43,472 nt of DNA from a virus (Duplodnaviria > Heunggongvirae > Uroviricota > Caudoviricetes): the IMG/VR virus record IMGVR_UViG_2737471820_000002. One strand, 5' to 3'. The first letter of the stretch is position 1, and every line of letters starts with the position of its first letter. The position numbers and the translations under genes are program-made. Below the pieces are notes generated by a model that saw only the letters and a list, made by a program, of their open reading frames with translations, was not told the DNA's origin and did not search any database. This document shows, piece by piece, positions 6,112-42,104 of this stretch.

Positions 6112-6114
6112 GGA

Positions 6115-11154: not shown

Positions 11155-11172
11155 TAACAGATTAATTTTTCA

Positions 11173-13419: not shown

Positions 13420-13775
13420 TACTGGTAATCCCCTTCTTCACCGTGGAACTCAAGATCAACCGTGCCTTCTTCGGCATTATGGTTCGCTTCTCCGTGCAGC
13501 CAGGCGGACGACAGTACATAGACCTGACCGTTCGCCAGCTCGGCAGTGATGGTCATCTCATCAGACGAGGTGATTTTGCTCACCGGAAAATTCTTCGGCA
13601 CCTTGAAGGTCCCTTTGACATAAGGCGCACGGTGAGTTTCCTTGCGGTCCACTGAACCGTCCAGGCCGATGATGTCATCATTGACCGTCCTGTTCATGGG
13701 CACCTCAATGCCGCCGGTCAGCGATAGCTGCTGACCGTCAATTTTGAAATAACAGGTTCCCCCGATACGGGCCAT
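13419..13775 (-). CDS. Tail tube protein (Mu M-like)
   Basis: 118 aa directly downstream of the sheath gene. Confidence 0.65.
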   Translation of the reverse strand: MARIGGTCYFKIDGQQLSLTGGIEVPMNRTVNDDIIGLDGSVDRKETHRAPYVKGTFKVPKNFPVSKITSSDEMTITAELANGQVYVLSSAWLHGEANHNAEEGTVDLEFHGEEGDYQ

Positions 13776-15271
13776 TATGCAGACTCCTCTGAATACTGAA
13801 GACGGAACTGGTTAACCACGGCAAAGACACGCAACTGGTTAACATAGTCAGGCGGGAACAGCGTGTTCAGGCGGTTCGGATCGCTGGCATCACGCTCCAC
13901 AACCAGGTACTGCTTAAACAGTTCGTAGTTTTCCACGATCCCCGCACGCTCAAGCTGACGGTAGGTTGCCAGCAGTTCCCCTTTGATCACCGCCGGTGTG
14001 ACAATCGCCTGACCGGGACCAAAGCGGGTACCGTCGCTGGCAAGCTTGTGACGCCCGTACTTACTGGTAATGACGGATTTCAGTTTGCGCAGTACATACG
14101 CGCTGGTATGCAGTGTCTCACTGTCGAGGTAGCTGTTATCCGCAACCCCGTAAGCGTTTTTCCTGTACGTGGTGACATCACGCTGAATGCGCAGTACCCC
14201 GCTTTCGACATACGCCGTTGCCACGCCATGAGACAGCAGGGTCTGTTGTTCGGTCATCGTGAACCGTTTCCCCTTCGGCGCAGGCAGCATACCCACCAGC
14301 TCACCGGTCTGCGTGGGACGTGCCGGATCGTTGCGGATAAACACCGCTGCGCGGGCGGTACGGCTTGCCGCCAGCTCGTCGGCAGGCGTCTGGGTGTCTT
14401 TTTCGTACCCCGCCAGGGTAATGTGCTGCTGGTTAAACTGGTCACCTGCGGTCACCAGTTCTGACAGCGTGCCGATCTTTGCCGAATACACATGACCATA
14501 CAGCTGACGCGCATAGCTCCAGCGACCGCTGGTATCGTTCATCTCGGTCACCAGCGTGTTAACGGAGGCCGTGTCGTTGAACGGCAGGCCGATATAATCA
14601 AACGGCTCATCCGCCATTGCAGCCACCGCGCCGGTGAGAACAGGAGCGCCCGTTCCGGCGGTACCCGTCGCCACGGCAATCTGTACGCCCGCTGGCAGCA
14701 CTTCGCCCCCACCAAAGCCGTAGTAATTGAGGCTGACAGGAATTTCATTCCCGCAAAGCCCCTTATGACGCGCGGTCAGCGTGACAACACCAGCCGAAGA
14801 TGAAGCTGTAAACGGCAGAGTCGGAACGGCATTGATGGCATCTTTGATACTGCTGGCAATCGTCGTGACGTTATCGCCGTTGGTCACCGGAGCCTGCACG
14901 CGGGTACGTCCCACATAGACATTCACCGTGCCGCTTTCGGTTGCTTCCCCGGTCACCGTCAGCGTAACCGTTGCCGCCGCGCCTGTGGCTTCCGGAACGG
15001 CAATCACATACAGCTCACCAAACGGGTCGGTCTGGCGATAAGCCTCGACCATACGCGCCAGCTGACTTCCCGCACCACAAATCTGGCGTGCATAGTCTGC
15101 CGACGGCATCAGCACCAGACTGTTGGCAACAATCTCTGCACCGTTATTGGCATGACCAATCAGCAGCGATGCTCCGCTGTCCTGTGCAGTATTCGCCGCC
15201 TGGTTATCCATTTCCGCATAAAACAGCGGAACCAGCGTATTCGACGGAATGGTGTTAAAGCTTATCGTCAT
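13775..15271 (-). CDS. Contractile tail sheath protein (Mu L-like)
   Basis: 498 aa, the first large ORF of the tail module. Confidence 0.75.
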   Translation of the reverse strand: MTISFNTIPSNTLVPLFYAEMDNQAANTAQDSGASLLIGHANNGAEIVANSLVLMPSADYARQICGAGSQLARMVEAYRQTDPFGELYVIAVPEATGAAATVTLTVTGEATESGTVNVYVGRTRVQAPVTNGDNVTTIASSIKDAINAVPTLPFTASSSAGVVTLTARHKGLCGNEIPVSLNYYGFGGGEVLPAGVQIAVATGTAGTGAPVLTGAVAAMADEPFDYIGLPFNDTASVNTLVTEMNDTSGRWSYARQLYGHVYSAKIGTLSELVTAGDQFNQQHITLAGYEKDTQTPADELAASRTARAAVFIRNDPARPTQTGELVGMLPAPKGKRFTMTEQQTLLSHGVATAYVESGVLRIQRDVTTYRKNAYGVADNSYLDSETLHTSAYVLRKLKSVITSKYGRHKLASDGTRFGPGQAIVTPAVIKGELLATYRQLERAGIVENYELFKQYLVVERDASDPNRLNTLFPPDYVNQLRVFAVVNQFRLQYSEESA

Positions 15272-15433
15272 CGGTGTTCACCTTTTTATTCACGCGCCGG
15301 ATATCACCCGCTGCTTCACGGCGCAGCCAGTAGTTGTTCTCGTCAACATTTCGCCCTTCGGCGGGCAAAAGGTCACCGCGGGCAGGGTCAGGCACTGACC
15401 GCCCTTTAACAGGTTTCACAAACATGAAGATTC

Positions 15434-15994
15434 TCAGGAAGGAAGGGTTATTTCGGTGTGATGTTCGATATCGCCGTCAGGCCCGTTACCGGGATCGAGA
15501 TAATCAACATCAATCGCCAGCGTTCGCAGTTCATCCAGACTGTTCAGGTCATCCTGCTGGCGGGTATCGTCTTCGGTCAGCTCGCTGATGATCGAAAAAT
15601 CGAACTGATAAATCAGCTCATGACGATTCAGATCCAGCAGCGTGCCGCCGTCATAGTTAATCGGGTTACCGCACGCTTCCGGGTTCCAGCCCAGCAGGGC
15701 CTTAAAGAGCATCTGCCGGACATCGTCCACCACATCATACGAAGCAAACTGACCGCGCTCATCACGCCCGTTACTCAGTATGACAACTACGGAGAAGCCC
15801 TCTTTCAGCTCCTGCCAGTAGTCGGTCTGGCTTTTGTTTTCTCCCGGAGAATCATCACCCGGTACAACATATGCCGCCGGGAGTTTCAGCTTTCCGACCT
15901 CCGGCAGATTTTTGAACTGGGCCGCGCCTGCAACCCGGTTTTCAAAATACGGACAGCGGGCACGCAGTGCAGCAATAACAGGCGTCAGTTTCAT
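15434..15994 (-). CDS. Hypothetical virion protein (head-tail joining region)
   Basis: 186 aa acidic protein between head completion genes and sheath. Confidence 0.3.
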   Translation of the reverse strand: MKLTPVIAALRARCPYFENRVAGAAQFKNLPEVGKLKLPAAYVVPGDDSPGENKSQTDYWQELKEGFSVVVILSNGRDERGQFASYDVVDDVRQMLFKALLGWNPEACGNPINYDGGTLLDLNRHELIYQFDFSIISELTEDDTRQQDDLNSLDELRTLAIDVDYLDPGNGPDGDIEHHTEITLPS

Positions 15995-16521
15995 CTGTGT
16001 CGTCGCTCCGGCTTCAGTGATTTACGCAATTCCCGCGCCAGAAAATAGCGTGTCCAGCTGCGGTTCTTTTCAAGCGTTTCCACCATGAAGTTATTACGTG
16101 GAGCCAGTCGCCAGCCGCTGCCACCGGATGCACCACGATGATGGCTGCGACGACGCTTTGCCCCTCGCCTCACGCCATAGAACAAAAAAGCCGGATAAAA
16201 ATCACCGGTGATACGGCGGTTTCCCTCTCCATTACGCTGGTTAGGGGCTATACGTGCCATAAAACCAGGGCGATGTTTACTGGCTCTGGGTACCATGTAA
16301 CCAATCGAACGAGCCAGGCGTCCGGTCTGATAACCGGGGTTTTCACCCGGTGCCGACCGCGCACGGCGCATCACCAGCCGACGGGCATCACGCATATGAC
16401 GCTGACCAATCGTGACAAACGCCCGCCGGACACGGGCGCGGTTAAAGCGCATCTCCGCGGGCTGCTGAAAATCAACGTGCAAAAAGGAAGTCGTCATTGT
16501 TGCCTCCGTGACTCTGCCCAC
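15991..16521 (-). CDS. Putative head-tail joining protein (HK97 gp10-like, basic)
   Basis: 176 aa Arg-rich protein in the connector region. Confidence 0.35.
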   Translation of the reverse strand: MGRVTEATMTTSFLHVDFQQPAEMRFNRARVRRAFVTIGQRHMRDARRLVMRRARSAPGENPGYQTGRLARSIGYMVPRASKHRPGFMARIAPNQRNGEGNRRITGDFYPAFLFYGVRRGAKRRRSHHRGASGGSGWRLAPRNNFMVETLEKNRSWTRYFLARELRKSLKPERRHR

Positions 16522-16882
16522 ATTCGCCCAACTCCGTACACTCCAGCAGCAGAAAGCGCCGCGCCCCGTTCAGATCGCGCTGACGTTTCACCCGGTACAC
16601 ACTGTCACCGCAGACCACCTCATAATCAGCGGTGATCCCCCGGCGGTAACGAATGGTGATGTAATGGGTGATGGCGTCCCCGGTCTGCGCGGTTTCCTGC
16701 CAGGTGGTGGCACTGGTCTGGATAACCTTCGCCCATGTCCGGAACGTAACCGGGTATTGAGGCTCCACGCCAAAGTTATCCGCGGGCATATCCACCCGCT
16801 GGCGGATCAGGACGCGTTTATTCAGTTCACCGGGGTCCGGCAGAATGTAGGTTGCGCTGGTCTGCGCCTGACGAATTTTCAT
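16472..16882 (-). CDS. Head-tail adaptor / head closure protein
   Basis: 136 aa, follows the gp6-like connector. Confidence 0.4.
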   Translation of the reverse strand: MKIRQAQTSATYILPDPGELNKRVLIRQRVDMPADNFGVEPQYPVTFRTWAKVIQTSATTWQETAQTGDAITHYITIRYRRGITADYEVVCGDSVYRVKRQRDLNGARRFLLLECTELGECGQSHGGNNDDFLFAR

Positions 16883-17202
16883 TGCGGAAAGTACCTGTAC
16901 GGGCCGACAAGCCAGCCAAAACTCTGCGGCATGTCGAGTTTCTCCACTTCCGTAACCGACGAGCGGTTTTCGTAAAAATGGCTGATAAGCATCAGCATCC
17001 CCAGACGAATATCATCCGGCAGGTGCAGCCCGTCCGGATCGCTGTCCGGAATGGTTTCATCCGGTGCATAGAGCTTCCGGTTCAGATACGTTTCCGTCCG
17101 CTTTTGTGCCGCACAGGCCAGCAGTTGCAGATGGCGGTCATCAGCATCGAAATCCTCATCCAGCCGGAGTTGGGCTTTAATCTCTTCCATTGTCAGAAGC
17201 AT
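16879..17202 (-). CDS. Head-tail connector (gp6-like)
   Basis: 107 aa downstream of the major capsid gene. Confidence 0.45.
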   Translation of the reverse strand: MLLTMEEIKAQLRLDEDFDADDRHLQLLACAAQKRTETYLNRKLYAPDETIPDSDPDGLHLPDDIRLGMLMLISHFYENRSSVTEVEKLDMPQSFGWLVGPYRYFPQ

Positions 17203-17204
17203 AC

Positions 17205-17405
17205 TCAGCCCTCTTTACTGGTCGTGGCTTTTTTCTCTTTTGCCGCTTTACTGCTTTTTGCACTGGTTCCGCGCTCTGCTAACCCGGCCTGAAGTGCAAT
17301 CTCCTGCACCCGGGCAGGAAGCGCCCCGTCGTCATACTCACCGGCCCGAATGACCTCAACACGCATACCGTCCGGTGACCATTTCAGATCTTGTTTCAGG
17401 ATCAT
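17205..17405 (-). CDS. Hypothetical small protein with Lys/Ala/Ser-rich tail
   Basis: 66 aa immediately after the major capsid gene. Confidence 0.3.
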   Translation of the reverse strand: MILKQDLKWSPDGMRVEVIRAGEYDDGALPARVQEIALQAGLAERGTSAKSSKAAKEKKATTSKEG

Positions 17406-17454
17406 GATTCTTCACCCGTCAGAACAGGGGGCGCGGTTCCGCGCCCCTGAGTGA

Positions 17455-18660
17455 TTACGCCGCTGCAATCTTCAGCAGTTTGATGGCCTGCGAATCGACC
17501 AGCATCCCGCCGGTGCGCTTGGTGGTATAAAAACCGACAAACGGTTTATTGGTGTACGGGTCACGCAGAATGCGGGTGCCGATACGGTCAACGATGGTGT
17601 AACCCCGTTTGAAGTTACCAAATGCAATGGCTTTCGCATCAGCGGCGATATCCGGCATCTGTTCGTTTTCAGCGATACCGTAACCCGCCAGAGAGGACGG
17701 CTGCCCCAGTTCCAGCCCCGGACGCCACAGATAGTTACCCTCGGTGTCTTTCAGCAGACGGATGGCAAACAGGCTGTTGTTGTTCATCATGAACTTCGCG
17801 CCGGTGCGGTGTGCCTTACGCAGCGTGTAAATCAGTTTGATAATGGCGTCTGCGGTCACCGCAGTCGCGTCGCCGGATACAATATGCTGAAGTTTGCCGA
17901 ACGCCCGGACCTTATCGGTTTCATCAGTGGATTCATACGCCAGGAACCCTTTCGGCTTCTTGGTGCCATCGCCTGAGGTAAAGGCAATTTCTTCCTGTTC
18001 GGCAAATTCGGTTGCCAGCTCGCTGTTGATCCAGGCCTCCACGTTGAAAAAGGCATCGTCCAGCATTTTCTGGGTGGCCTGCGGGTTACCGTAGATTTCC
18101 CCCATGAGAGGTTCAATCAGCTCCAGTCTGGAGGTGGCAGTCTGGGATCGCGTATCCGTTTCCCCCACCCATCCGGAAGCCGTACCGCCCAGATTCACCA
18201 GTTTTTTGTAGTCGGAACCGCCAACGGTGATCACTGTGGCTTCCTGACGCATCACCACTTCATCTTTAAGCAGGTTGAGAATGTTGCGATCCAGCGCTTC
18301 CGGCACGGCGTAGCCACCGTCTTCATCGGTGCCCACCTGCAATGCCTTACGCTCCAGATCGCGCAGACCGTCTTCACGGCCTTTACGCAGGAAGCGCACA
18401 AACGCCTCTTTATGCTCGGTGGCCAGTTTATTTTGCGCACCACCTGCCGGACGTTTCAGCTCAAGCAGCTCTTTTTCAAGATCGCTTTTGAGGTTTTCCA
18501 GCTCGCTGAGTTTCCCGTTCAGGGTTTCCACCTGCCCGGCAAGTTTGCCTTTTTCCTGCTCAATCGCATCCACGCGCTTGTCGTTCTTTGCTTTGAAGTC
18601 GTCAAACTTCTGCTGCAGCTCCTGCGCGACCTGTTCCACATCTTTAATATCAACCGCCAT
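17455..18660 (-). CDS. Major capsid protein, HK97 family
   Basis: 401 aa with an N-terminal coiled-coil delta-like region, downstream of the prohead protease. Confidence 0.8.
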   Translation of the reverse strand: MAVDIKDVEQVAQELQQKFDDFKAKNDKRVDAIEQEKGKLAGQVETLNGKLSELENLKSDLEKELLELKRPAGGAQNKLATEHKEAFVRFLRKGREDGLRDLERKALQVGTDEDGGYAVPEALDRNILNLLKDEVVMRQEATVITVGGSDYKKLVNLGGTASGWVGETDTRSQTATSRLELIEPLMGEIYGNPQATQKMLDDAFFNVEAWINSELATEFAEQEEIAFTSGDGTKKPKGFLAYESTDETDKVRAFGKLQHIVSGDATAVTADAIIKLIYTLRKAHRTGAKFMMNNNSLFAIRLLKDTEGNYLWRPGLELGQPSSLAGYGIAENEQMPDIAADAKAIAFGNFKRGYTIVDRIGTRILRDPYTNKPFVGFYTTKRTGGMLVDSQAIKLLKIAAA

Positions 18661-18674
18661 CGTATTTCTCCTGA

Positions 18675-19361
18675 TTAGAAGTTCAGATTTTTCAGTGCAT
18701 TCAGTGCAGAGCCCACATCCTCAGCGTCGCGCAGGGACAGTGCGCCATAGCCCCCGGCCATGAATGCTTTGGCCTGGGTACGGGAGAGTCCGACATCACG
18801 CAGGACTCTTTCGATTTTTTTCTGTTCGGGGATTTCCCCGCGGGCCAGTGCGTTCTTGACGTCGCTGATCCGCGCCTCGTCGTTAGACGGGAACGTCACC
18901 AGGCTGACTTCCCAGAGGTCGATTTCTTTCAGCAGAAAGGCTTCTTTGCTCCGGTCGTATTCCCAGTCTTTCAGGACGTACCCAATAGAAAGGCCGGTTA
19001 ACGAACCGGCCTTCATGTGTGCATGTGCGCGTTTTGCGAGGGGATCATCATCAATAAGCAACCGTCCCCTGACGTAAAGCCCGACATCGTCTTCCTTCAT
19101 TTCGGTGTAAACACCGATGGGTTCATCCATGCGGTGCTGCCAGAGCAGCGCAGGTAACGCTTTTCTGTCACTCCACGCCCGCAGGGAAGCAGCAAATGCC
19201 CCGGACATCACCACATCATCGTGGCTGTCCTTTACACCAAAGACGGAGCCATACCCTTCAAACTCACCGGAGTCACTGACAGATTTCAGACTCAGCGGTA
19301 CATCAAGACGTTGTTTCGTCTGCATTGGCGTTATCCTTCTGCTTACCGGCTTTACTGCCAT
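18675..19361 (-). CDS. Prohead protease, HK97 family (start may be internal)
   Basis: 228 aa between portal and capsid; overlaps the portal 3' end so the true start is probably a downstream ATG. Confidence 0.7.
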   Translation of the reverse strand: MAVKPVSRRITPMQTKQRLDVPLSLKSVSDSGEFEGYGSVFGVKDSHDDVVMSGAFAASLRAWSDRKALPALLWQHRMDEPIGVYTEMKEDDVGLYVRGRLLIDDDPLAKRAHAHMKAGSLTGLSIGYVLKDWEYDRSKEAFLLKEIDLWEVSLVTFPSNDEARISDVKNALARGEIPEQKKIERVLRDVGLSRTQAKAFMAGGYGALSLRDAEDVGSALNALKNLNF

Positions 19362-20544
19362 CGGAGGGTTTCGTGGTCATGTTCATCGGTGTGAGATAGA
19401 CATCACCACCGGGACGCGGATTCATATCTTCCAGGTCGCGGCAGTCATTGGGAGAGTAAATTCCCCAGTTAATCCCGGTGGCGTAAGCTTCAAAACGGGA
19501 CTTCATATCCCCGCGCAGTAACGCCCCGGCGTTAAATTTGGCGTAATAAACGCCCTGCTTACTTTTTCGTACCAGTCCGGTGTTGATCCGCTGTTCGATG
19601 CGGGTCAGATACGGCACCAGTGAATAGTTGATAAATCCGAGCCCCAGTTCTTCGATATTGTTGAAGGTGGCGCGATCGGTGTTCTGCACCATGTGCAACG
19701 GTACCCGGAACAGACGACAGATTTCTTCAAGCTGAAACTTGCGGGTTTCCAGGAACTGGCTGTCCTCGGCGTTCAACGCCATCGACTTCCAGTCCAGCCC
19801 CATCTCAAGGATCATCGGGCGGTGAGCATTGCCAAGCCCGGTGTGACGCTCCTCAAAATCTTTCTTCAGGCGCTCATAAGCCTGATCTGACAGCGTCTGC
19901 TCTGTACGCAACACACCCGACGTCACCGCGCCATTGCTGAACAGTCTGGCCCCGTGCTCTTCGGTCGCAGCTGCCAGCGATATTGCCTCGCGGGCATAGG
20001 CGATGGGATTCAGCCCCACCAGTCCGTCCAGCGTCAGCGTACGCACATGCCAGATATCCTCCTGGCTCAGTACATCCGTGGAGCCATCCGGGAATGTGAC
20101 CTGATAGATCGGCTCCCAGCTACTGTTAAGCTTCGGTACCACACAGCCGGGATCGACGGGCAGCAGTTCAGCCACTTCGCCAAATGCTTTCACTTTGTAG
20201 GCGTAAAAGTTTCCCCGCAGGCACAGACAGGTGACCACCAGCTCCCAGAACTCCTGCGGCGTCATATAGCCATTGGGATGCGTGGAGATCAGCTTATGCA
20301 GACGTTCGCCAGTGGCTCTCTGCTTCAGGCTGCCGTTCAGGTGATACAGGTTGCAGGGCAACATCCCGACCGACTCCGCCAGCACCCTGACGCAGGAAAA
20401 AACCGCCGTCAGTCGCATGGCCCTCTGGCTGCTGATCTGCTTTCCGGTATAGGTGTCGTATGACAGCCCGATAGCATCCGCCAGCTCTGCTGGCGTGGTC
20501 ACCGGTGCGTCACTTTTTCGTTGAAATAATCCCGAAAAGAACAC
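19303..20544 (-). CDS. Portal protein, HK97 family
   Basis: 413 aa after the large terminase. Confidence 0.75.
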   Translation of the reverse strand: MFFSGLFQRKSDAPVTTPAELADAIGLSYDTYTGKQISSQRAMRLTAVFSCVRVLAESVGMLPCNLYHLNGSLKQRATGERLHKLISTHPNGYMTPQEFWELVVTCLCLRGNFYAYKVKAFGEVAELLPVDPGCVVPKLNSSWEPIYQVTFPDGSTDVLSQEDIWHVRTLTLDGLVGLNPIAYAREAISLAAATEEHGARLFSNGAVTSGVLRTEQTLSDQAYERLKKDFEERHTGLGNAHRPMILEMGLDWKSMALNAEDSQFLETRKFQLEEICRLFRVPLHMVQNTDRATFNNIEELGLGFINYSLVPYLTRIEQRINTGLVRKSKQGVYYAKFNAGALLRGDMKSRFEAYATGINWGIYSPNDCRDLEDMNPRPGGDVYLTPMNMTTKPSDGSKAGKQKDNANADETTS

Positions 20545-20726
20545 TATTTACCTCCACCAACAGACATCTGTGTACGGTCGAGATATCGCGCCACCAGCCA
20601 CGACCAGAACAGGCACAACGCCCCGGCAACAACAAACCCCGCAGGGGGATAAATCAGCCAGGCACCATACGCCAGCAAAAGCACCCCCAGCACGCCCACC
20701 AGAGGCGCGAGAATCAGCATGATCAT
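20544..20726 (-). CDS. Small membrane protein
   Basis: 60 aa, almost entirely hydrophobic, wedged between terminase and portal. Confidence 0.35.
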
Positions 20727-20737
20727 AATTACCTCAG

Positions 20738-22471
20738 TTAAAGCGAGCGGATCCCGTAGGACTCAATGTGATCAGACAGCGTGTCTTCTTTCTCGTACAG
20801 CATGGCTCTGCCAACCGCCATAATCAGCGCAACTGCACCGTCAATTTTGTTTTCCGCCTGCTCTTTGACGGGTTTCACCACATCATCGTTACCCGGCATG
20901 TTTTTGCCGACCACGTTGCCGATACACCAGGTCATGATGGGATTGCCGTCATGATGAAAACGTCCCGATTCAATCGCTGCTTCCAGCTCTTTCAGCGGAT
21001 CGGACATATTGGTGAAGTTCTGGAAGATAGTGACGGGATTCAGGTCTTCATCAGCAAGGTCATGTGACAGCCCGGTCGCCCCGAAGGGGTCGATGGGTGA
21101 CTCGCTGACCGGGCTGATTTTGTTCGCCGCTTTGGCCTCTTCGAGGATGTAGCGATAATCCACCTCTGCACCATCGGTAACGGTCAGGACGCCCATTTCC
21201 ACCCATTTCTGAAAGCGTTCGGCTGTCCGGCGATCTTCATTTTTCTCGACGCTGTACACCGTGTCATACGGTACCCAGAAACGCGGGGCCACACTGTAGT
21301 AATGCGTTTTACCGTCAATCTCGCGGGTATAAAGTCGCGCCATGCTGTTCATATCCAGTTTACGCGCCAGGTCAAAGGCCAGAATGCACGGCTGCCCCTC
21401 GAATTGCTCAAGAGTCAGTGATTTATCCTCGCAGCTCTGCCAGCTCACCAGGTTGAAATACGCCGAACGCGCCGACACCCAGATATTGAGGTGTTTTGTT
21501 TTAAAGACGTTTGCCAGACGGGCGTTATTTTTCGCACGCTGTTGCTGACTTAACAAAAACTCACGGTAAACCGACACCCCGATATTCGGGTTGGCTTTTT
21601 CCAGCACCTGTGGGTTGGTCCAGTCGTCACCTTCGTCAACGGTATAGATGATCCCGAACAGTTCATCGTTGGGTACCGAACCGTTGAGCATCTCGATAAC
21701 TTCCCGCCGTTTGTCGTAGCACGGCCCCTCAATGTTGTACCCGGCAGTAGTAATGGCCCACATCAGTGGCTGACGTCGCGCCCCCATCCCGGTAAGCATC
21801 GTGGTGTAAAGCGCATCGGTGGCGTGCTCGTGATATTCATCCACCACCGCACAGTGGGGTGATGATCCATCACCGGGGTTACCGATCAGCGGTTCAAACC
21901 GCGCGCCATCCTCCGGACGGTTCATGTTTGAGGCGTTAACCTCAATCCCGAACGCTTCCGTCAGCATGGGTGTGCGTTTACACATCAGTCGCGCCGGGCG
22001 AAAGACTTCCCACGCCTGTTTCTCTGTCGTGGCACCGGAATACACTTCCGCGCCAAACTCGTTATCACAGGCAAAACAATACAGGGCAACACCGGCAGAG
22101 ATTGCCGATTTGCCGTTCTTACGGGGGATTTCGGTATACACCTCACGGAAGCGGCGCAGCCGGGAGCCTTTATTGACCCAGCCAAACGCGCAGCAGATCA
22201 CAAAGAGCTGCCACGGCTCCAGCGTGATGGGCATCCTCTTAAATGCCCATTCACCCTTGGTGTGCGGCAATAGCTGAATAAATTTGGCGGCCCGTTCAGC
22301 CAGGTCCTTGTCGAAGCGGTAACGAAACGACTTACTTTTTTCCGCCATCAGGTCATCAAGATGGCGCTGGCAGGCCTGAATCACAAACTGGCAGGCCACA
22401 ATCTTTCCCCGCACGACATCACGGGCATACTGATTGGCAGCATTTACGTTGGGGTAAGATTTCCGGCTCAT
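20738..22471 (-). CDS. Terminase large subunit
   Basis: 577 aa; overlaps the small-subunit stop by 4 nt. Confidence 0.85.
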
Positions 22472-22971
22472 GATTCGATGATTTTCAGAAACGGGTTAGT
22501 GGCTTTCTTCTGCCCCGCCAGGCCTATCAGACGCTGGCGGCTGCTGGGGTCGAGTCCGAGCATTGCCCCCGTGCTGCTCATCTCGGACTCCTGTTCTTTC
22601 TTGGCGGTCAGCTCCGGGTTTTTGACCATACCGCCCATTGCACCGGTGATGGTGTTGCCCTGGCTGGCAATATTTTTCACGGCACGTCGCCAGAACTCAT
22701 AGGCCACGCACCACCGCTCAAGCACCGCGAGGTCAGTCACGCACAGCAGACCCTGACCGCAGAGTTCTTTGGTTGTCAGTTGCCACATGGTCGTGGCGAG
22801 AGGGAGATCTTCTTCAGCGAACCACTCCGGTGGCTCAACACCTTTGATGGGCGTAAAAACAGGTTCATCTTTATTCAGGGCTCGCTTGCCGGGGTTTCCG
22901 GCCAGCGCCTTGCGCGCCGTTGGCTTGGGGCGACGCCCGGAACGCCCCGCCGTTCCAGCCATATGCGGCAC
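22468..22971 (-). CDS. Terminase small subunit (P27 family)
   Basis: 167 aa with a basic N-terminus immediately upstream of the large subunit. Confidence 0.7.
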
Positions 22972-23087
22972 TCCTGGTTAAATTTCATTTTTCGCGGGTA
23001 TAAAAAAACGATGGGGCGGGCAGTCCGGAAGACGTCAGGCCGCAGGGATTTGACCCGCCCCTCCCCTCAGGCAGTTGAGAATTATTA

Positions 23088-23438
23088 TCACTTCAACCGT
23101 TCACGGGCCGTCTTCGCCTTATGACACGGCCAGCACAGGCTCTGCAGATTACTGTCGGCATCAGAGCCGCCATGCGCTTTAGGGATGATGTGATCAACGG
23201 TTTTCGCTTCACGCACCACACCGGCACGCAGGCACAACTGGCACAGTCCTTTGTCACGCTTCAACACACGCACGCGGATAACATCCCACTTCGAACCATA
23301 ACCGCGCTGATGACGGGATTGTCCTGGCTTGTATTGCTTCCAGCCTTCGCTTTTGTGGCTTTCACAATAGCCTGACGGGTCTGTGGTGGTATGGCGGCAG
23401 CCACGAACACGGCAGGCTTTTGGGATTCGTGATGGCAT
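23088..23438 (-). CDS. HNH endonuclease (terminase-associated); start chosen at internal ATG
   Basis: CxxC...HIIPKAHGGSDADSNLQSLCWPCH HNH motif; GGAG RBS precedes the ATG at 23438 (ORF-track start is 23537). Confidence 0.7.
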   Translation of the reverse strand: MPSRIPKACRVRGCRHTTTDPSGYCESHKSEGWKQYKPGQSRHQRGYGSKWDVIRVRVLKRDKGLCQLCLRAGVVREAKTVDHIIPKAHGGSDADSNLQSLCWPCHKAKTARERLK

Positions 23439-23963: not shown

Positions 23964-24257
23964 ATGAAAAAAATGTTATTTTCTGCCGCTCTGGCAATGC
24001 TTATTACAGGATGTGCTCAACAGACGTTTACTGTTGGAAACAAACCGACAGCAGTAACACCAAAGGAAACCATCACCCATCATTTCTTCGTTTCGGGAAT
24101 TGGACAGGAGAAAACTGTTGATGCAGCCAAAATTTGTGGCGGCGCAGAAAATGTGGTTAAAACAGAAACCCAGCAAACATTCGTAAATGGATTGCTCGGT
24201 TTTATTACTTTAGGCATTTATACTCCGCTGGAAGCGCGGGTGTATTGCTCACAATAA
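23964..24257 (+). CDS. bor: Bor lipoprotein (serum-resistance family)
   Basis: MKKMLFSAALAMLITGCAQ lipobox and near-identity to lambda Bor; opposite strand to the lysis genes as in lambda. Confidence 0.85.
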   Translation: MKKMLFSAALAMLITGCAQQTFTVGNKPTAVTPKETITHHFFVSGIGQEKTVDAAKICGGAENVVKTETQQTFVNGLLGFITLGIYTPLEARVYCSQ

Positions 24258-24288: not shown

Positions 24289-24750
24289 CTATCTGCACTG
24301 CTCATTAATATACTTCTGGGTTCCTTCCAGTTGTTTTTGCATAGTGATCAGCCTCTCTCTGAGGGTGAAATAATCCCGTTCAGCGGTGTCTGCCAGTCGG
24401 GGGGAGGCTGCATTATCCACGCCGGAGGCGGTGGTGGCTTCACGCACTGACTGACAGACTGCTTTGATGTGCAACCGACGACGACCAGCGGCAACATCAT
24501 CACGCAGAGCATCATTTTCAGCTTTCGCATCAGCTAACTCCTTCGTGTATTTTGAATCGAGCGCAGCAACATCACGCTGACGCATCTGCATGTCAGTAAT
24601 TGTCGAGTTCGCCAGCTTCAGTTCTCTGGCATTTTTGTCGCGCTGGGCTTTGTAGGTAATGGCGTTATCGCGGTAATGATTAACAGCCCATGACAAGCAA
24701 ACGATGATGCAGATAACCAGAGCGGAAATAATCGCGGTTACTCTGCTCAT
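24289..24750 (-). CDS. Rz: Rz i-spanin
   Basis: 153 aa with an N-terminal TM segment, directly after the endolysin gene. Confidence 0.8.
24348..24530 (-). CDS. Rz1: Rz1 o-spanin lipoprotein, embedded within Rz in another frame
   Basis: Lipobox LVVVGC and a proline-rich [13 protein letters not shown] segment. Confidence 0.75.
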
Positions 24751-25223
24751 ACCTCAATCTCTCTGACCGTTCCGCCTGCTTCTTTGAATTTTGCAATCAG
24801 GCTGTCAGCCTTATGCTCGAACTGACCGTAACCAGCGCCCGGCAACGAAGCCCAGATATTGCTGCAACGGTCGATAGCCTGACGAATATCACCACGATCA
24901 ATCATCGGTAAAGCGCCACGTTCTTTAATCTGCTGCAATGCCACAGCGTCCTGGCTTTTGGGGGAGAAGTCTTTCAAACCAAGCTGTTTACGGTAAGCAT
25001 CCCACCAACGTGAAAGAAGCTGGTAACGTCCGGCGGCTGTTGATTTGAGTTTGGGGTTTAGCGTGACAAGTTTGCGAGGGTGATCGGAGTAATCAGTAAA
25101 TAGCTCTCCGCCTACAATGACGTCATAACCATGATTTCTGGTTTTCTGCCGTCCGTTATCCGTTCCTTCTGACCATGCAACCATATCCAGGAAAGCTTTA
25201 CGCTGGGAATTTAGTACCTGCAT
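24747..25223 (-). CDS. R: Endolysin (lambda R-type lytic transglycosylase)
   Basis: Near-identical to lambda R over its length (…[33 protein letters not shown]…). Confidence 0.9.
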
Positions 25224-25226
25224 AAA

Positions 25227-25562
25227 TTACTCCTTCGAGCTACCAAACTTGTTACCGATTACTCTCATTGCAGCCCCACGAATAGCATCGACACCGATCA
25301 GCCCCACCCCACCACCAATGGCAATAGAAAGCGATTTAGGCCATCCGACATACTCAAGCGCGGATGCAAAGGTCAACGTCAGAGCGCCACATAGCAAAAT
25401 CTCGAGCGTTTTTCGCTTCCAGCCACCACCACCGCCAAAATAGGCGATGCGCAAACCAGCCATAACAATCGACATAATCACTGCGCCCAGCGGCGTATCT
25501 CCACGCCACCAGCTCTGAAACAACTCCAGCCAGTCCGGCCAGGTATTTGGGTTATGAGGCAT
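25227..25562 (-). CDS. Putative holin
   Basis: About 111 aa with hydrophobic segments immediately upstream of the endolysin; start taken at internal ATG 25562 to avoid overlap with the methyltransferase gene. Confidence 0.5.
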   Translation of the reverse strand: MPHNPNTWPDWLELFQSWWRGDTPLGAVIMSIVMAGLRIAYFGGGGGWKRKTLEILLCGALTLTFASALEYVGWPKSLSIAIGGGVGLIGVDAIRGAAMRVIGNKFGSSKE

Positions 25563-25638: not shown

Positions 25639-26691
25639 TTATTTCCCCACCAGTTCACTTACCTCTTTCACCGTCTGATTAAACCGCTCTGACTCAAGTT
25701 CAACACCTAACGCCCGACGCCCCAGCGCCATTGCCGCTTTTATTGTGGAACCGGATCCCATAAAGAAATCAGCAACCAGATCGCCTTGTCGACTACTGGC
25801 ACTGATTATTTGCCGGAGCATATCCGCGGGCTTCTCACACGGATGTTTACCCGGGTAGAACTGAACGGGTTTATGCGTCCAGACGTCGGTATAAGGCACG
25901 GAAACTGATACGGAGAAATAGCGCCGGAGAGTTTTAAACTCATCCAGCAATTCAGAATATTTGCGATTCAGTGAATCATAAGATGCCACCAGCTGGTGGT
26001 GTGGTTGTTCCAGTTGTTGTTCCTGAAATTTCTCTGCCGCTATACGGGAAAACAGTGCCTGCAACTTCCGGTAGTCAGCCTCATTCGGCAACTGCCACTG
26101 ACTGGCACCAAACCAGTGGGAAACCATATTTTTCTTACCAGTGGCTTCGGCAATCTGTTTTGCCGTTATACCCAGTTCGGCACGAGCATCCCTGAAATAC
26201 GAAATCAGCGGTGCCATTATGTGCTGTTTGAGTTGACTTTCTTTTGCCGCATAGCCGTCACTTTTGCCGCGATATGGTCCCTGGTAATGTTCAGCAAACA
26301 GAACGCGTTCTGTTGCGGGAAAATATGCGCGCAGACTTTCTTTATTACACCCGTTCCATCGTCCGGACGGCTTCGCCCAGATAATATGGTTAAGAACGTT
26401 GAAACGTTCACGCATCATGATCTCGATATCAGATGCGAGGCGATGTCCACAGAACAGGTAAAGGCTTCCGGCAGGTTTCAGCACCCGCCAGAACTGAGCC
26501 AGACAGTGGTCCAGCCACTTCAGGTAATCTTCGTCCCCTTTCCACTGATTGTCCCAACCGTTGGGTTTCACCTTGAAGTACGGCGGATCGGTAACAATCA
26601 GGTCAATGGAATCATCAGGCAGGGACTGAATAAAATGCAGGCAATCAGCGTTGATTAAATCAGCACTGTTTATTTTCACAGTATTTTTCAT
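25639..26691 (-). CDS. DNA methyltransferase (N6A/N4C class, DPPY motif)
   Basis: IVTDPPYF motif and C-terminal FFMGSGST SAM-binding motif. Confidence 0.75.
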   Translation of the reverse strand: MKNTVKINSADLINADCLHFIQSLPDDSIDLIVTDPPYFKVKPNGWDNQWKGDEDYLKWLDHCLAQFWRVLKPAGSLYLFCGHRLASDIEIMMRERFNVLNHIIWAKPSGRWNGCNKESLRAYFPATERVLFAEHYQGPYRGKSDGYAAKESQLKQHIMAPLISYFRDARAELGITAKQIAEATGKKNMVSHWFGASQWQLPNEADYRKLQALFSRIAAEKFQEQQLEQPHHQLVASYDSLNRKYSELLDEFKTLRRYFSVSVSVPYTDVWTHKPVQFYPGKHPCEKPADMLRQIISASSRQGDLVADFFMGSGSTIKAAMALGRRALGVELESERFNQTVKEVSELVGK

Positions 26692-26840
26692 GGATCAGTA
26701 AGCGTAACTCTGGTAGGCTCACTCTGCTTTTGCGCTAAAGCAGTGGGCCGTGGTTCGCTTGTGACCAGTAAGCATGAGCGAATGGCTGGCAGGTGCTACC
26801 AACACCCACCAGCCGCCCATTTTCACAAATTAAAAGCCCT

Positions 26841-27035
26841 TCATTGCTGAAGGCGTCTGTAACAGCCGAACTGGTAATCTGCCAGCCCCGCCATAACCAG
26901 CTGGGTCAGTATTAACTGACAGCGTTCGCGTGAAAGGTATGTGTTTTGTGCAATCTCCCCGACTGTTGCCGGTTTGCCGTTTAATTCATTAAAAACAACT
27001 TTCGCCGTTTCTGTCATATCTAGCTGTTTTAGCAT
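26841..27035 (-). CDS. Hypothetical small protein
   Basis: 64 aa ORF between the porin and the methyltransferase. Confidence 0.3.
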   Translation of the reverse strand: MLKQLDMTETAKVVFNELNGKPATVGEIAQNTYLSRERCQLILTQLVMAGLADYQFGCYRRLQQ

Positions 27036-27380
27036 GTCTTTTTACCTTCATGGTTAACATGACATACCAATAACTCTTGTCTAAAAAGCCAGCAAGATAA
27101 AAAGTCAGTATTCACAACCACCAGCGTGTTTACCGTACTGCACCAGGTTTACAGGTACAAAAAAACCAGCTCGACGGCGGGTTTAAGCTGTGTGACGAAG
27201 TAACCACTCTTAACAGCATAACCAATTTTTTACGTACGTAAACCACTGAATGATATTTATGAGAATGCTACCGAGTGTTCAAAACACCACCACAAATACA
27301 TAAGAAAACCTCAACAAATAATCAATAAATAATTTCAGACGTTATTTTTAGTTGATTTAAATTAAACTGCCGAATTATAG

Positions 27381-27389
27381 CCCCCCCCC
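27381..27389. repeat. C9 homopolymeric tract in the porin upstream region
   Basis: tatag-ccccccccc-ataaat, counted directly; about 225 bp upstream of the porin ATG. Confidence 0.9.
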
Positions 27390-27613
27390 ATAAATAACAG
27401 CCATTAATATAAATTAGCTAATAGATTTATTTTTGTTCAAATAAGAGCCATAAATAGGTTTCGATAGAAAAAGTTCAGATAAAAATAGAGATCTACTTCA
27501 CAAATTAAATGAGAAACTAAAACTTACATCTTGAAATAATCACATTGATTAGATGAATATTTATCGCGCAGTGACATCATTTTTTAATAATAGTTCAAAA
27601 AAAAGGGCTCACG

Positions 27614-28696
27614 ATGAAAAAATTAACAGTGGCAATTTCTGCTGTAGCTGCATCAGTACTGATGGCGATGTCTGCTCAGGCAGCTGAAATTTATAATAAA
27701 GACAGTAACAAGCTGGATCTGTACGGGAAAGTTAATGCTAAGCACTACTTCTCCTCTAATGATGCAGATGATGGTGATACTACTTATGCCCGTCTTGGCT
27801 TCAAAGGTGAAACCCAAATCAACGATCAACTGACTGGTTTCGGTCAGTGGGAATATGAATTCAAAGGCAACCGCGCTGAATCTCAAGGTTCCTCCAAAGA
27901 CAAAACCCGTCTTGCATTTGCAGGCCTGAAATTCGGTGACTACGGCTCAATCGATTACGGCCGTAACTACGGTGTAGCATACGACATCGGTGCGTGGACT
28001 GACGTTCTGCCAGAATTCGGTGGCGATACCTGGACCCAAACAGATGTATTCATGACTGGTCGCACCACAGGTGTTGCAACTTATCGTAACAACGACTTCT
28101 TTGGTCTGGTTGATGGCCTGAACTTTGCAGCTCAGTATCAGGGCAAAAATGACCGAAATGAAGTAACTGAAGCTAATGGCGATGGTTTCGGTTTCTCAAC
28201 TACTTATGAGTATGAAGGATTCGGCGTGGGTGCAACCTATGCTAAATCTGATCGCACTAATAATCAGGTTATCTACGGTAACAACGGTCTGAATGCTTCT
28301 GGTCAAAATGCTGAAGTATGGGCAGCTGGTCTGAAATATGATGCGAACAACATCTATCTGGCCACCACCTATTCTGAAACCCAGAACATGACTGTTTTTG
28401 GTAATAACCATATTGCCAACAAAGCACAAAACTTCGAAGCTGTTGCACAATATCAGTTCGACTTCGGCCTGCGTCCATCCGTTGCTTACCTGCACTCTAA
28501 AGGAAAAGACTTGGGTGTTTGGGGTGATCAGGACCTGGTTGAATATGTTGATGTAGGTGCAACCTATTACTTCAACAAAAATATGTCCACTTTTGTTGAC
28601 TACAAAATCAACCTGATTGATAAGAGCGATTTCACGAAAGCATCTGGCGTTGCTACCGATGATATCGTTGCTGTAGGTATGGTTTACCAGTTCTAA
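27614..28696 (+). CDS. Outer membrane porin (OmpC/NmpC/Lc family)
   Basis: Signal peptide [30 protein letters not shown]...LDLYGK start and C-terminal ...VGMVYQF beta-barrel signature; long AT-rich leader. Confidence 0.85.
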
Positions 28697-28832
28697 TTTG
28701 ATTACTAAAAGATATGTTGTGGGAGGCTTTGCCTCCCCAACATATAAGTGGCTCCCTCAAGCCACTTCCTTTAGAAGCACAACCTTGCTTCTAACTATAC
28801 AAACCTTCTGTTATATATTACCCTTTATTTTT

Positions 28833-28858
28833 GGGGGCGTTTCAACGCCCCATTTTTA
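28833..28858 (+). terminator. Rho-independent terminator downstream of the porin gene
   Basis: gggggcg-tttcaa-cgcccc followed by attttt. Confidence 0.6.
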
Positions 28859-28884
28859 ATAACTTTTAGTAAATAATTGGCGTA

Positions 28885-29268
28885 TTAATTAGAGTTATTA
28901 ACAACGATATCCATCTCTAACCGGATATCTAATGCCATTAACATCCCTTCAATTATGCCCTCAGCCTTTTGTAACCTTTTCCCGATATAACCATCAGAGC
29001 AGCAATGCTTACCTGCCAGTGACATGAATGTCATACCGACTATATAATAATCTACTAATAAATCGTGCAAATCGCTGTTGTTCTTTTTCAGACGGGCCAT
29101 GCACCCGCAAATGATCATCGCGTCATCGTCACAACATTGCGGGCGAGATTTTACTTTTGAAGGAATTAATCCCTTAAAACCGGCGGCAATGGACGACCAG
29201 GTCACATCTTCATGATTATTAGCCGCCCACGCTCCCCAACGCTCAAGAACCATCTGAATATCACGCAT
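28885..29268 (-). CDS. Q: Late antiterminator Q (phage 82 / DLP12 QuuD type)
   Basis: [22 protein letters not shown]... with a Cys cluster, matching DLP12 Q; start taken at the internal ATG. Confidence 0.75.
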
Positions 29269-29356
29269 CAACTTACTCCACAAAAATCAGACCAAAACGC
29301 CAATTACAAGCAAAAATCAACAAAACAGTATTAGTTGATTGTTATCTCTGACTTCA

Positions 29357-29476
29357 TACTCCTGCTCCTGTCAGGGTTTTGGCGTAACTCTTCAGTATTC
29401 GGTAATCGGTCAAAACAGAACCGGGGAAACGATATAAGCGCAGGCGCACCCAGCGGCGGCGAAGACGTTCTGCCAT
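29357..29476 (-). CDS. Small YlcG-like protein
   Basis: 39-aa ORF MAERLRRRWVRLRLYRFPGSVLTDYRILKSYAKTLTGAGV between rusA and Q, the YlcG position in DLP12; not in the ORF track (under 60 aa). Confidence 0.4.
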
Positions 29477-29490
29477 ATAAGACTCAAACA

Positions 29491-29853
29491 TCATTCATCT
29501 CCCAGTTCAGTGATGGTCAGTTCCAGCTTCCCACCTTTGGTAACAGGCATCTTCACAACGCGGTAATCAACGACCAGCTCATCATCCAGCCAGAAACCTG
29601 CTTTAGTGAGTGCGTCAAAAGCGGCTTTTTGCAGATTATCCAGGTCACGGCGACGGCGATCCGGCATGTGGCACTCAATGCGGATTTTCACAGGCATAGC
29701 CAGACCGATATCCAGCATTGAGCCTTTAATGATTCGGGCGACGTTATCGCGGTATGCCTGCCCTTCTGCGCTGATGTGCGTGCGCCCTCGATTATGGCGG
29801 TAGTAGCGGTTATTGCTCGGCGGCCAGGGTAGTGTGATGTGGTAAGTATTCAC
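29491..29853 (-). CDS. rusA: Holliday junction resolvase RusA
   Basis: [26 protein letters not shown]... near-identical to DLP12 RusA. Confidence 0.9.
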
Positions 29854-30947: not shown

Positions 30948-31430
30948 TTAATTTAATAATCCTTGGAGAAATCTCACGCACCACCTCAATAGTTGCGCTT
31001 GCTCTTGAGAATCAACAAAAAGATAAGCGTCTTTATTTCCGTGGAAAAGGTTATTTCTTATCCTTATAACTATCTTTAATACTGTAGACATGGTGTTTAG
31101 ATCTGTTGCTGCGTCATTTTGAAGTCCATTAACTATTCCCCGCCTATCTCTCTCTCGACCGACACAGAGGGCGTCAAGTCTTTCCTGCGCATCCCCATTC
31201 AAAATGTATCTCTGCTTAAAATCGTGAAAAAGTTCGTTGGGCACCTTTATCCCGGCGTCAAGTAACGTTCGCGCATAATTTAAACTGTCTTCCCCCTTAG
31301 CAAAGCCACCAAAAAAACTTTGCTCGACCCTAGGAAAAATCATGCAGAATTGAAGATAAACATCAATCAGTTCATCAGATGGAGGCTCCGATAAATTAAG
31401 TAACCGCTGCAGTCCTTCTGCACTTATCAT
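30948..31430 (-). CDS. HEPN-domain protein (predicted RNase toxin-like), gene 3 of the nin-region cassette
   Basis: 160 aa; C-terminal RIRNNLFHG matches the HEPN RNxxxH motif; AT-rich; start ATG overlaps the upstream small-ORF stop (ATGA). Confidence 0.55.
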
Positions 31431-31675
31431 TTTTCACCTTCCTGCTTAAGATGTCGAGGAGCGGATGCCTTGGGCAGCGCGATGCTCTGCTCGCGGTAAT
31501 GTCGTGGCCGCTCCAAAAAATAGTCCCGCAAATGCTCAGGCTGCTCACGCATCACCGCTTCGGCAATAACCGGTATATTAAGGCGCTCTTTGTAGGTAAC
31601 TCAGGAGACAGCAAGGTCAACGTTAACCTTCTCGCGCTCTTCTTGTGTTTTAGCGGCAATATTCCGCTTCGACAT
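31430..31675 (-). other. Small ORF interrupted by an in-frame TGA (24 + 56 codons), translationally coupled to the HEPN gene
   Basis: [87 protein letters not shown]; AGGAG lies upstream of the first ATG; an internal ATG at 31552 would give a 41-aa peptide. Confidence 0.3.
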
Positions 31676-31686
31676 GGCGTTACGTT

Positions 31687-32439
31687 TTACTCCTTTTTGG
31701 GTGCATACACGTTGTTTATCCGTTCAATATGAATAGTTACATCCGGGCTTTCTAAGAATAAGAAGTCAATCAAATGACCAATGAGAATGCAGGCATCATT
31801 AATAGAGGACCTTGTGACTTTAATCCCTCCATGACTGCCGTGATTCCCCAACCACTTTAACGCCATGAATGCATCTTTATTTGGTCCCAGTTTATCTGAA
31901 TAATTTGTGATTCTTTCATGCGTAGAAAGACGTATTATCTTGCCTTTAACTGTTTTCTCTCTTGGTACATCAAGACTATCAAGCATCATCTCCAGTATGG
32001 TTCTCATGGTGTTCACCGCTGAAGCTGGGTGCGAGGGGATCAGAGCTGATACTTCCGCCAAGAGATCAGCTATATCTTCAGGGCACTTTTCAGGAAACAG
32101 GAATAGAGGAAGTGGTGGATAGAAATACTTAGGACGGAAACCAGAAACATACCAACGCTCCGTCATTTCGTCATTGAAGCATTCTACAGCAACAACCTGC
32201 CCAGACAAAGCAACCTTCTCCTGGCAGGCTTGGCGGGTACAGCGCAGCACGCAACTGAATACTCCTCCCGACATTTCCTCATCAAACCATACTTCATCTC
32301 TAAACTGAGTTGTTGCGCTTGAATCAGTTTCTACAAAACTATCAGCGACAATCTCCAGTGTTTCATTCATACAGTTCGGGCAGCGCCAAGCTGGTGCGTC
32401 ATTTCGTTTAAACGTGGCATACAGTAATTTAGGATCCAT
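31687..32439 (-). CDS. Zinc-ribbon protein with C-terminal HEPN-like (possibly DUF4145-like) domain, gene 1 of the nin-region cassette
   Basis: 250 aa; N-terminal Cys cluster WRCPNC...SCVLRC...QAC; C-terminal KWLGNHGSHGG aligns with RIRNNLxHG but lacks the Arg; GGAG RBS 9 nt upstream; AT-rich. Confidence 0.45.
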   Translation of the reverse strand: MDPKLLYATFKRNDAPAWRCPNCMNETLEIVADSFVETDSSATTQFRDEVWFDEEMSGGVFSCVLRCTRQACQEKVALSGQVVAVECFNDEMTERWYVSGFRPKYFYPPLPLFLFPEKCPEDIADLLAEVSALIPSHPASAVNTMRTILEMMLDSLDVPREKTVKGKIIRLSTHERITNYSDKLGPNKDAFMALKWLGNHGSHGGIKVTRSSINDACILIGHLIDFLFLESPDVTIHIERINNVYAPKKE

Positions 32440-42028: not shown

Positions 42029-42104
42029 TGGTGCCGATAATAGGAGTCGAACCTACGACCTTCGCATTACGAATGCGCTGCTCTACCAACTGAGCTATAT
42101 CGGC
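42029..42104 (-). tRNA. thrW: tRNA-Thr (anticodon CGU)
   Basis: Minus-strand sequence GCCGATATAGCTCAGTTGGTAGAGCAGCGCATTCGTAATGCGAAGGTCGTAGGTTCGACTCCTATTATCGGCACCA has GTTCGA T-loop, anticodon CGT flanked by T and A, and 3' CCA. Confidence 0.85.

Follow-up and report, generated by a model that had tools for sequence, protein, structure and literature searches.

The subject of this analysis is a porin gene in the viral sequence IMGVR_UViG_2737471820_000002 (Caudoviricetes), hereafter the window, by which we mean the whole stretch of 43,472 nucleotides that was analysed. The gene is located between that of the antiterminator Q (28885-29268) and the lysis cassette (24289-25562), on the plus strand, whereas the phage genes flanking it are all on the minus strand. 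An initial annotation, made from the sequence alone, had placed an OmpC/NmpC-like porin gene in this position and orientation, and on all these points it was right. The interval it had proposed, 27060-28860, holds for the porin module from 27161 onwards, the left boundary of this module; positions 27060-27160 are part of a neighbouring module, composed of a 64-aa open reading frame (ORF) and a DNA methylase gene. The porin module contains the following features:

27184-27613, either strand: AT-rich regulatory region, G+C 0.26-0.40, about 94% identical to phage PA-2 and to DLP12, the cryptic prophage of Escherichia coli K-12
27188-27208, plus strand: CRP-like site 2, TGTGACGAAGTAACCA, homologous to the second CRP site of PA-2 and overlapping the conserved late-direction leader; because of indels, these coordinates are approximate within 2 nt
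27485-27505, plus strand: CRP-like site 1, ATAGAGATCTACTTCACAAAT, homologous to a CRP site annotated in the PA-2 record and placed by alignment
27614-28696, plus strand: porin gene, Lc/NmpC allele, encoding 360 aa, the first 23 of which form a signal peptide (27614-27682), with a PEFGGD motif and the C-terminus YQF
28697-28863, plus strand: putative IpeX small-RNA locus and porin 3' untranslated region (UTR), four stem-loops, the last being an intrinsic terminator; 96-97% identical to K-12
28834-28857, plus strand: this intrinsic terminator, GGGGCGTTTCAACGCCCC followed by ATTTTT (stem-loop 28834-28851, T run to 28857)

The porin ORF is unbroken, with no frameshift and no IS5 insertion, and the G+C content of its coding sequence is 0.43-0.48. 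Judged from its sequence, the product is a general bacterial porin of the OmpC/OmpF/PhoE type, with the Pfam family PF00267 (Porin_1) covering the protein over the full length of the profile (E=3.6e-152, positions 1-337 of 337). The signal peptide, followed by AEIY, was assigned through its identity to the sig_peptide annotated for the porin Lc in the PA-2 record J02580. The PEFGGD motif of the constriction loop L3 occupies residues 133-138, and the C-terminus (...VYQF) keeps the terminal aromatic residue, a Phe. Residues 24-360 align end to end with the solved chains of OmpK37, OmpC, OmpK36, PhoE and OmpF (E from 1e-135 to 1e-115); the best of these alignments (OmpK37, OmpC and PhoE, E about 1e-135) are full length, and the one with OmpC spans chain positions 1-343. 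An AlphaFold (AF2) model of the porin, which was built from an input alignment of 24 close homologues and used solely as a coarse check, gave template modelling (TM) scores of 0.77-0.82 over about 350 columns against OmpC, OmpK36 and OmpK37, with a mean predicted local distance difference test (pLDDT) of 55. A disrupted barrel, which the initial annotation had named as evidence that would tell against its proposal, was thus not found; the alignments and the model point to an unbroken 16-strand barrel with an L3 constriction loop, which presumably forms a trimeric diffusion channel.

Two close relatives of this protein, Lc of phage PA-2 and NmpC of the DLP12 prophage (formerly qsr'), have been known since the 1970s-1980s. 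The window porin is 92.7% identical to Lc and equally to K-12 NmpC with IS5 removed, and its signal peptide is identical to that of Lc. The DNA identity to PA-2 (J02580) is about 91% and runs unbroken over 27161-28922, i.e. including the upstream region with its two CRP sites and the IpeX region. The porin of Escherichia phage ev099 (LR597635), annotated as OmpD, is 100% identical in protein sequence, with a DNA identity of 99.3% over 27161-28860; unlike in the window, this module is carried on another phage backbone, and the holin gene follows about 140 bp past the module boundary. Compared with Lc, the window porin is five residues shorter and differs mainly in what appear to be loops L4, L5, L6 and L8. 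Four inter-strand segments (182-187, 216-231, 263-267 and 335-347), read as these surface loops by the usual porin topology, contain 26 of the 37 residue differences, a clustering that would fit a surface-exposed porin under selection by phages or antibody.

The gene order Q, opposite-strand porin, holin-endolysin-Rz, opposite-strand bor/iss is common to DLP12, 434B, ev099 and a prophage of E. coli E89, the last being 99.8% identical; the order Q, porin, lysis genes is also that of PA-2. In DLP12, quuD is followed by IpeX and nmpC on the opposite strand, then by essD-rrrD-rzpD and by borD, as in the window, and its Q protein is 98% identical and its IpeX region 96-97% identical to those studied here. 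Nevertheless, K-12 nmpC is interrupted by IS5, while the window gene is intact, and the DLP12 holin is of the S21 type, while that of the window is of the lambda type and comes with an SfV-type module. The module is also frequent: among 5426 complete E. coli genomes, 2466 contain 80% or more of the 1.8-kb stretch, as do 36 phage records, and the exact porin protein belongs to a cluster of 2741 member sequences. In its close identity, its position between Q and the lysis genes, its opposite strand and its CRP-like sites, the window copy has the features by which the Lc/NmpC module is recognized. From these sequence comparisons, the lambdoid-phage porin gene Lc/NmpC is carried here as an intact allele, together with IpeX, and this is an already described and ordinary cargo.

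The names given to this protein in public sources, namely 'porin OmpC', 'NmpC precursor', 'outer membrane porin protein LC' and 'OmpD', raise the question of whether the gene might be the host's own ompC rather than phage cargo. RefSeq, through its PGAP annotation, labels the identical gene 'ompC: porin OmpC', because the gene passes the cut-off of the NCBIfam OmpC subfamily (515 bits vs 484), with the consequence that genomes seem to hold several ompC genes. However, the gene sits inside a prophage between Q and holin, it is 92.7% identical to Lc/NmpC but just 61-65% identical to the OmpC structures, and the same module is found in at least 36 sequenced phages, so that the probability of its being chromosomal ompC is practically nil and this reading was rejected because of the position of the gene. 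Chromosomal general porins are core genes under EnvZ-OmpR or Pho control. OmpC, OmpF, PhoE, OmpK36 and OmpK37 share family and fold with the window porin at 59-65% identity, and the Salmonella OmpD clusters do so at about 80%, while the window porin, unlike chromosomal general porins, is carried as cargo by a prophage, has an upstream region of its own and is linked to a small RNA. The 'porin OmpC' label on a prophage porin can mislead surveys of porin loss or resistance.

Downstream of the porin gene, the 188-bp spacer between the porin and Q stop codons is 96-97% identical to the nmpC-quuD spacer of K-12. The initial annotation had seen terminators here. An intrinsic terminator is indeed present at 28834-28857, but it is only the last element of a larger structure: read as plus-strand RNA, 28697-28863 folds into four hairpins with a minimum free energy (MFE) of -58.5 kcal/mol and z = -8.97, and none of 200 shuffled sequences folded as well. 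IpeX, a small RNA from the 3' region of the DLP12/PA-2 porin gene, lowers OmpC and OmpF synthesis (PMC12197685, PMC8065619, PMC5069750, PMC7177473), and its length and position as given in PMC12197685 match the 167-nt stretch directly 3' of the porin stop codon. The high identity to K-12 identifies 28697-28863 as IpeX. This length and position are also said to have been described by Castillo-Keller in 2006. The Rfam search, run on the whole window with the gathering threshold and on 26600-29400 with E<=1, returned no family for the IpeX region, and because of this the assignment is based on sequence identity and literature. Among 13 sequence variants from 35 IpeX loci, nearly all changes fall in loops, in a bulge or in linkers. 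At two sites of stem substitution the pairing is kept as G-U on the plus strand and becomes A-C on the minus strand, while one outlier variant breaks pairs on both strands; considering how few the substitution events are, this weakly suggests that the plus-strand RNA is the selected structure.

On the other side of the gene, the G+C content falls to 0.26-0.33 over 27150-27600, 5' of the porin ATG, and 27161-27613 has a mean column identity of about 94% in the alignment of the window, E89, ev099, K-12 and PA-2. What the initial annotation had called a long AT-rich leader is therefore AT-rich, as stated, but this stretch of about 450 bp is a regulatory region and not a demonstrated transcribed leader. 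In K-12, nmpC promoter activity is lost when the 199 bp before the start codon are deleted, and 5'-RACE with a primer located in IS5 gave a 1.4-kb product that extends to the nmpC start site (PMC11677980); from the size of this product we estimate that the nmpC 5' UTR is short. By analogy, 27184-27613 is expected to hold the porin promoter together with candidate promoters for the late direction. A consensus promoter scan reported none on either strand of the porin upstream region or of the Q-porin spacer, and for this reason the promoter assignments made in these regions are hand readings or mappings from the literature. For the porin promoter our guess, read by hand, is TTGAAA (27531-27536) and GAATAT (27555-27560) with a G start at about 27566-27568.

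The AT-rich region also contains a run of nine C at 27382-27390, 224 bp before the porin ATG. The corresponding tract is C8 in E89 and C5 in ev099, and no run is present in K-12 or PA-2. A role as a phase-variation switch was considered and rejected, since 31 of 37 related viral contigs read AACCCCC and C7-C9 occur in single sequences alone; the tract seems to be lengthening in a minor lineage and does not look like a widespread switch.

These features suggest how the module may work. The porin gene would be a self-contained 'moron', switched on in the lysogen by its own promoter, which in K-12 lies within 199 bp of the ATG and in the window keeps its CRP-like sites. After cleavage of the 23-aa signal peptide, the product would enter the outer membrane as a 16-strand general-diffusion porin, presumably a trimer. 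The porin transcript would run on into the 167-nt four-hairpin 3' region, yielding IpeX, which would lower OmpC and OmpF. As a net effect, the phage porin would take the place of part of the host's major porins, with altered permeability and with removal of OmpC as the receptor of PA-2-type phages. Expression, IpeX processing, OmpC/OmpF repression and receptor exclusion in the prophage of the window are what we infer from the literature on near-identical relatives. It should be noted that a role in lysogenic conversion, which the initial annotation had proposed for this cargo, is established for the near-identical Lc and NmpC.

An intact gene might still be silent, as are K-12 nmpC or ompN, and leave the lysogen without a phenotype. 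K-12 nmpC is indeed inactive, through IS5, and nmpC has been called a quiescent porin gene (Prilipov 1998, as cited in PMC3333887). In the window, however, there is neither IS5 nor a frameshift, and the upstream region is about 94% identical to those of PA-2 and of K-12, where the promoter PnmpC is active (PMC11677980). Moreover, the exact protein is kept in the 2741-member cluster and in viable phages; its differences from Lc are concentrated in predicted surface loops, as would be the case for a protein exposed to selection; and homologues are expressed, uropathogenic CFT073 showing at 37 °C a strong preference for nmpC-type porins, in RNA as well as in protein (PMC12890032). A silent gene appears very unlikely in the light of these data. 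The explanation that accounts best for the whole is an intact Lc/NmpC porin with IpeX, carried as a moron and leading to replacement of host porins, and we consider it highly probable.

The genes surrounding the porin module are as follows:

29491-29853, minus strand: RusA, on the right flank
28885-29268, minus strand: Q antiterminator, 98% identical to DLP12 QuuD, Pfam PF06530 (Q21 family), 30% identical to Q21
26841-27035, minus strand: 64-aa ORF with no family match
25639-26691, minus strand: N6/N4 DNA methyltransferase, forming with the 64-aa ORF a second cargo module (25639-27035)
24289-25562, minus strand: lysis cassette (holin, endolysin, Rz/Rz1)
25227-25562, minus strand: lambda-family holin
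24747-25223, minus strand: endolysin
24289-24750, minus strand: Rz, with embedded Rz1 at 24348-24530

The porin is therefore not the sole cargo between Q and holin, and here the window differs from PA-2, in which the porin module directly abuts the lysis genes. The 64-aa ORF and the methyltransferase gene correspond to orf47 and orf48 of SfV, and a pair with about 79% identity precedes tRNA genes and stx2AB in Shiga toxin (Stx) 2a phages; a terminator-like hairpin is found at 26853-26838, after the 64-aa ORF. At the boundary between the two modules, homology to PA-2/DLP12 ends at 27161 and homology to SfV begins at 27183, and between these points lies a conserved late-direction terminator. A QuuD-IpeX-porin block has thus been joined to an SfV-type block (orf47, orf48, S, R, Rz) inside this terminator, which, because the two homologies stop and start at its ends, looks like a recombination linker between modules.

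The initial annotation had compared the position of the porin with that of the toxin cargo of Stx phages, and the comparison is sound. The stx operon occupies the same interval between Q and S, and in Stx2a_EH2201 the module of 64-aa ORF and methylase that stands beside the porin in the window is also present, there before the tRNAs and stx2AB. The two kinds of cargo differ in orientation. The stx genes are on the late strand, downstream of pR'/tR', and their expression is therefore coupled to induction. The porin gene is oriented the other way and, in its relatives, has a dedicated promoter, and would therefore be expressed in the lysogen; in this respect it is unlike the Stx type of late-operon cargo, which lies on the late strand and needs no promoter of its own.

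A further claim of the initial annotation was that late transcription from Q runs antisense through the porin gene. This is not established, and depends on where late transcription starts. The elements that bear on the question are all on the minus strand:

28815-28845, minus strand: Q-adjacent late-promoter candidate, TTGAAA-19-TAATAT followed by a -10-like TATAGT, read by hand and missed by the consensus scan
28711-28745, minus strand: IpeX hairpin 1 as read on this strand, with a CUUUUAGU tail, -22.7 kcal/mol, a possible late-direction terminator before the porin
27565-27598, minus strand: counterpart of the DLP12 lysis-operon promoter, GAACTA-N16-TGTCAC, with +1 at 27565, at a distance of 49 nt from the porin ATG, and directed away from it
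27215-27242, minus strand: predicted late promoter on the far side of the porin, TTTACG-16-TATGCT, upstream of the conserved leader and terminator
27159-27181, minus strand: conserved late-direction terminator of tR' type, CCCGC-CGTCGA-GCTGG-T7, CCCGCCGTCGAGC(G/T)GGTTTTTTT, weakened by a G-to-T change at 27168

A reporter fragment numbered '-121 to +650' has been used as the regulatory region of the DLP12 lysis operon (PMC7918800). Placed on K-12, the primers of that study delimit a 771-bp amplicon that starts in the nmpC signal-peptide codons and ends in essD, and the +1 maps to K-12 position 576,874, corresponding to 27565 on the minus strand of the window. The motif GAACTA-N16-TGTCAC is identical in K-12 and in the window and looks sigmaE-like. 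In work by Rueggeberg (2013 and 2015), the DLP12 lysis promoter is reported to require RpoE and to respond to the DLP12 Q. The hexamers read by hand for the porin promoter fall within the first 35 nt transcribed from this lysis promoter, and vice versa (27531-27598); if the hand-read porin start near 27567 is right, the two promoters would be mutually exclusive.

The far-side elements also recur in related phages. The TTTACG-16-TATGCT site is kept in K-12 and in PhiR40_1, where the Q is 84% identical and the whole promoter-leader-terminator unit lies past another opposite-strand cargo gene. In SfV the same terminator is annotated just downstream of Q, and upstream of it we read by hand TTGCAT-17-TAAGAT and a lambda-like AACGAT; in Stx2a_EH2201 the conserved terminator, with a leader of about 30 nt, directly follows the Q gene. 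Since both the DLP12 fragment and the tR'-type terminator lie past the porin, we lean towards a start of late transcription in the porin-holin spacer, diverging from the porin gene, and regard this as moderately probable.

The scheme implied by the initial annotation is a different one. In it, pR' would immediately follow Q (at about 28845-28815, with a start near 28808), and the hairpin at 28745-28711 would be its terminator. We think this unlikely, yet it has substance: the TTGAAA-19-TAATAT element is followed at about +9 by the near-consensus TATAGT and then by the -22.7 kcal/mol hairpin with its U tail, and the phages ev087 and PhiR40_1 (Q 84-85% identical) have analogous sites after Q, followed by opposite-strand cargo. 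In ev087 these are TTGCTG-17-TAATGT, TAGAAT and a T8 terminator, and in PhiR40_1 TTGAGG-17-TAATGT and a hairpin. In addition, the annotation of phage 21 has pR', a leader of about 50 nt and a terminator within about 90 bp of the Q end as the normal layout, and the far-side terminator is crippled in the window lineage. If the scheme were correct, Q-modified polymerase would after induction run antisense through IpeX and the porin gene to the lysis genes, switching the conversion module off; in the lysogen, the short terminated transcript would be an exact antisense of IpeX. Against it, the 19-bp spacer is poor and the site was not reported by the consensus scan; the DLP12 lysis-promoter fragment (PMC7918800), starting in the porin signal-peptide codons, excludes the Q-adjacent region; the stem substitutions favour the plus-strand RNA as the selected structure; the conserved leader and terminator, which follow Q directly in Stx2a_EH2201 and pR' in SfV, lie past the porin here; and the promoter of the DLP12 lysis genes reportedly responds to the Q protein of that prophage.

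In a further reading, both strands of the Q-porin spacer are used, with IpeX on the porin strand and a constitutive Q-adjacent promoter on the other giving a short, terminated, perfect antisense of IpeX, so that the lysis-lysogeny switch toggles the porin programme. We consider this decidedly unlikely. If it were true, Q-modified polymerase would continue through the porin gene after induction, the phage porin and IpeX would be on in the lysogen and antisense-silenced in lytic growth, and the far-side promoter-terminator would be either a vestige or an entry point under host (sigmaE) control. Under either start model, N-antiterminated early transcription through Q could, by analogy with lambda, cross the porin gene in lytic growth.

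The direct repeat of the Q21 binding element, TGAGCA-N2-TGAGCA, had 42 matches vs 41.6 expected, none of them in a relevant place, and the motif is not transferable because the window Q is just 30% identical to Q21. A chimeric query joining the Q 3' end to the far-side element found the cargo-free junction in none of the 5426 genomes, a result that does not discriminate between the models. Locating pR' by homology to ev087 was tried and abandoned: its Q gene has 88% DNA identity, but the homology ends inside the Q end, and aligning the spacers globally gave no convincing result.

Several points weigh against the interpretation preferred here, i.e. a functional porin-IpeX module from which late transcription diverges. 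The AF2 model of the porin is of low confidence, lowest in L3, and no Rfam family fits the IpeX region. The far-side terminator folds at -7.3 kcal/mol in the window vs -16.1 in K-12, where it is intact (GCGGG), and the G-to-T change responsible is fixed in the window, E89, PA-2, ev099 and all 37 related viral contigs; a terminator crippled also in the viable PA-2 and ev099 sits awkwardly with a working tR'. Finally, the late strand does carry a promoter-like element next to Q, a further -10-like element and a strong U-tailed hairpin, and comparable sites are found in ev087 and PhiR40_1, where they too come after related Q genes.

The slot after a QuuD-like Q recurrently holds opposite-strand cargo. 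In ev087 it is occupied by a Blc lipocalin gene (3567-4091 of locus L006), and in PhiR40_1 by a gene for a 148-aa protein with no Pfam match (1247-1693 of locus L010). Elsewhere in the window, a Bor/Iss lipoprotein gene (23964-24257, plus strand; Pfam Lambda_Bor, E=1e-30), called iss in the E89 prophage, is located just after Rz on the opposite strand and represents another moron for lysogenic conversion. Two genes that lie between the nin region and the replication genes (30948-32439, minus strand), one for a hypothetical protein of 160 aa and one for a DUF4145 protein of 250 aa, may be accessory or defence cargo; in E89, whose prophage is near-identical, this pair adjoins a disrupted homologue of DNA polymerase III theta.

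The structural genes (5816-23438) are about 98% identical to those of the Shigella phages SfII, SfI and SfV. These genes encode the head and a contractile tail, and the prophage is therefore an SfV-like myovirus with a Q-porin block of DLP12/PA-2 type. A tRNA-Thr (cgt) gene is found at 42029-42104, near the right end; going by sequence, the prophage is SfV/SfII-like and adjoins this gene.

To the known examples of the porin module, the window copy adds an intact allele that differs in its set of predicted surface loops and a clear case of module exchange at the conserved terminator of the late leader. In addition, it raises the testable question of where late transcription of QuuD-type phages starts relative to opposite-strand cargo. 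Phage-borne porins change antibiotic uptake, the display of phage receptors and surface antigenicity, as is established for Lc/NmpC and IpeX, and close to half of the complete E. coli genomes contain the module described here.

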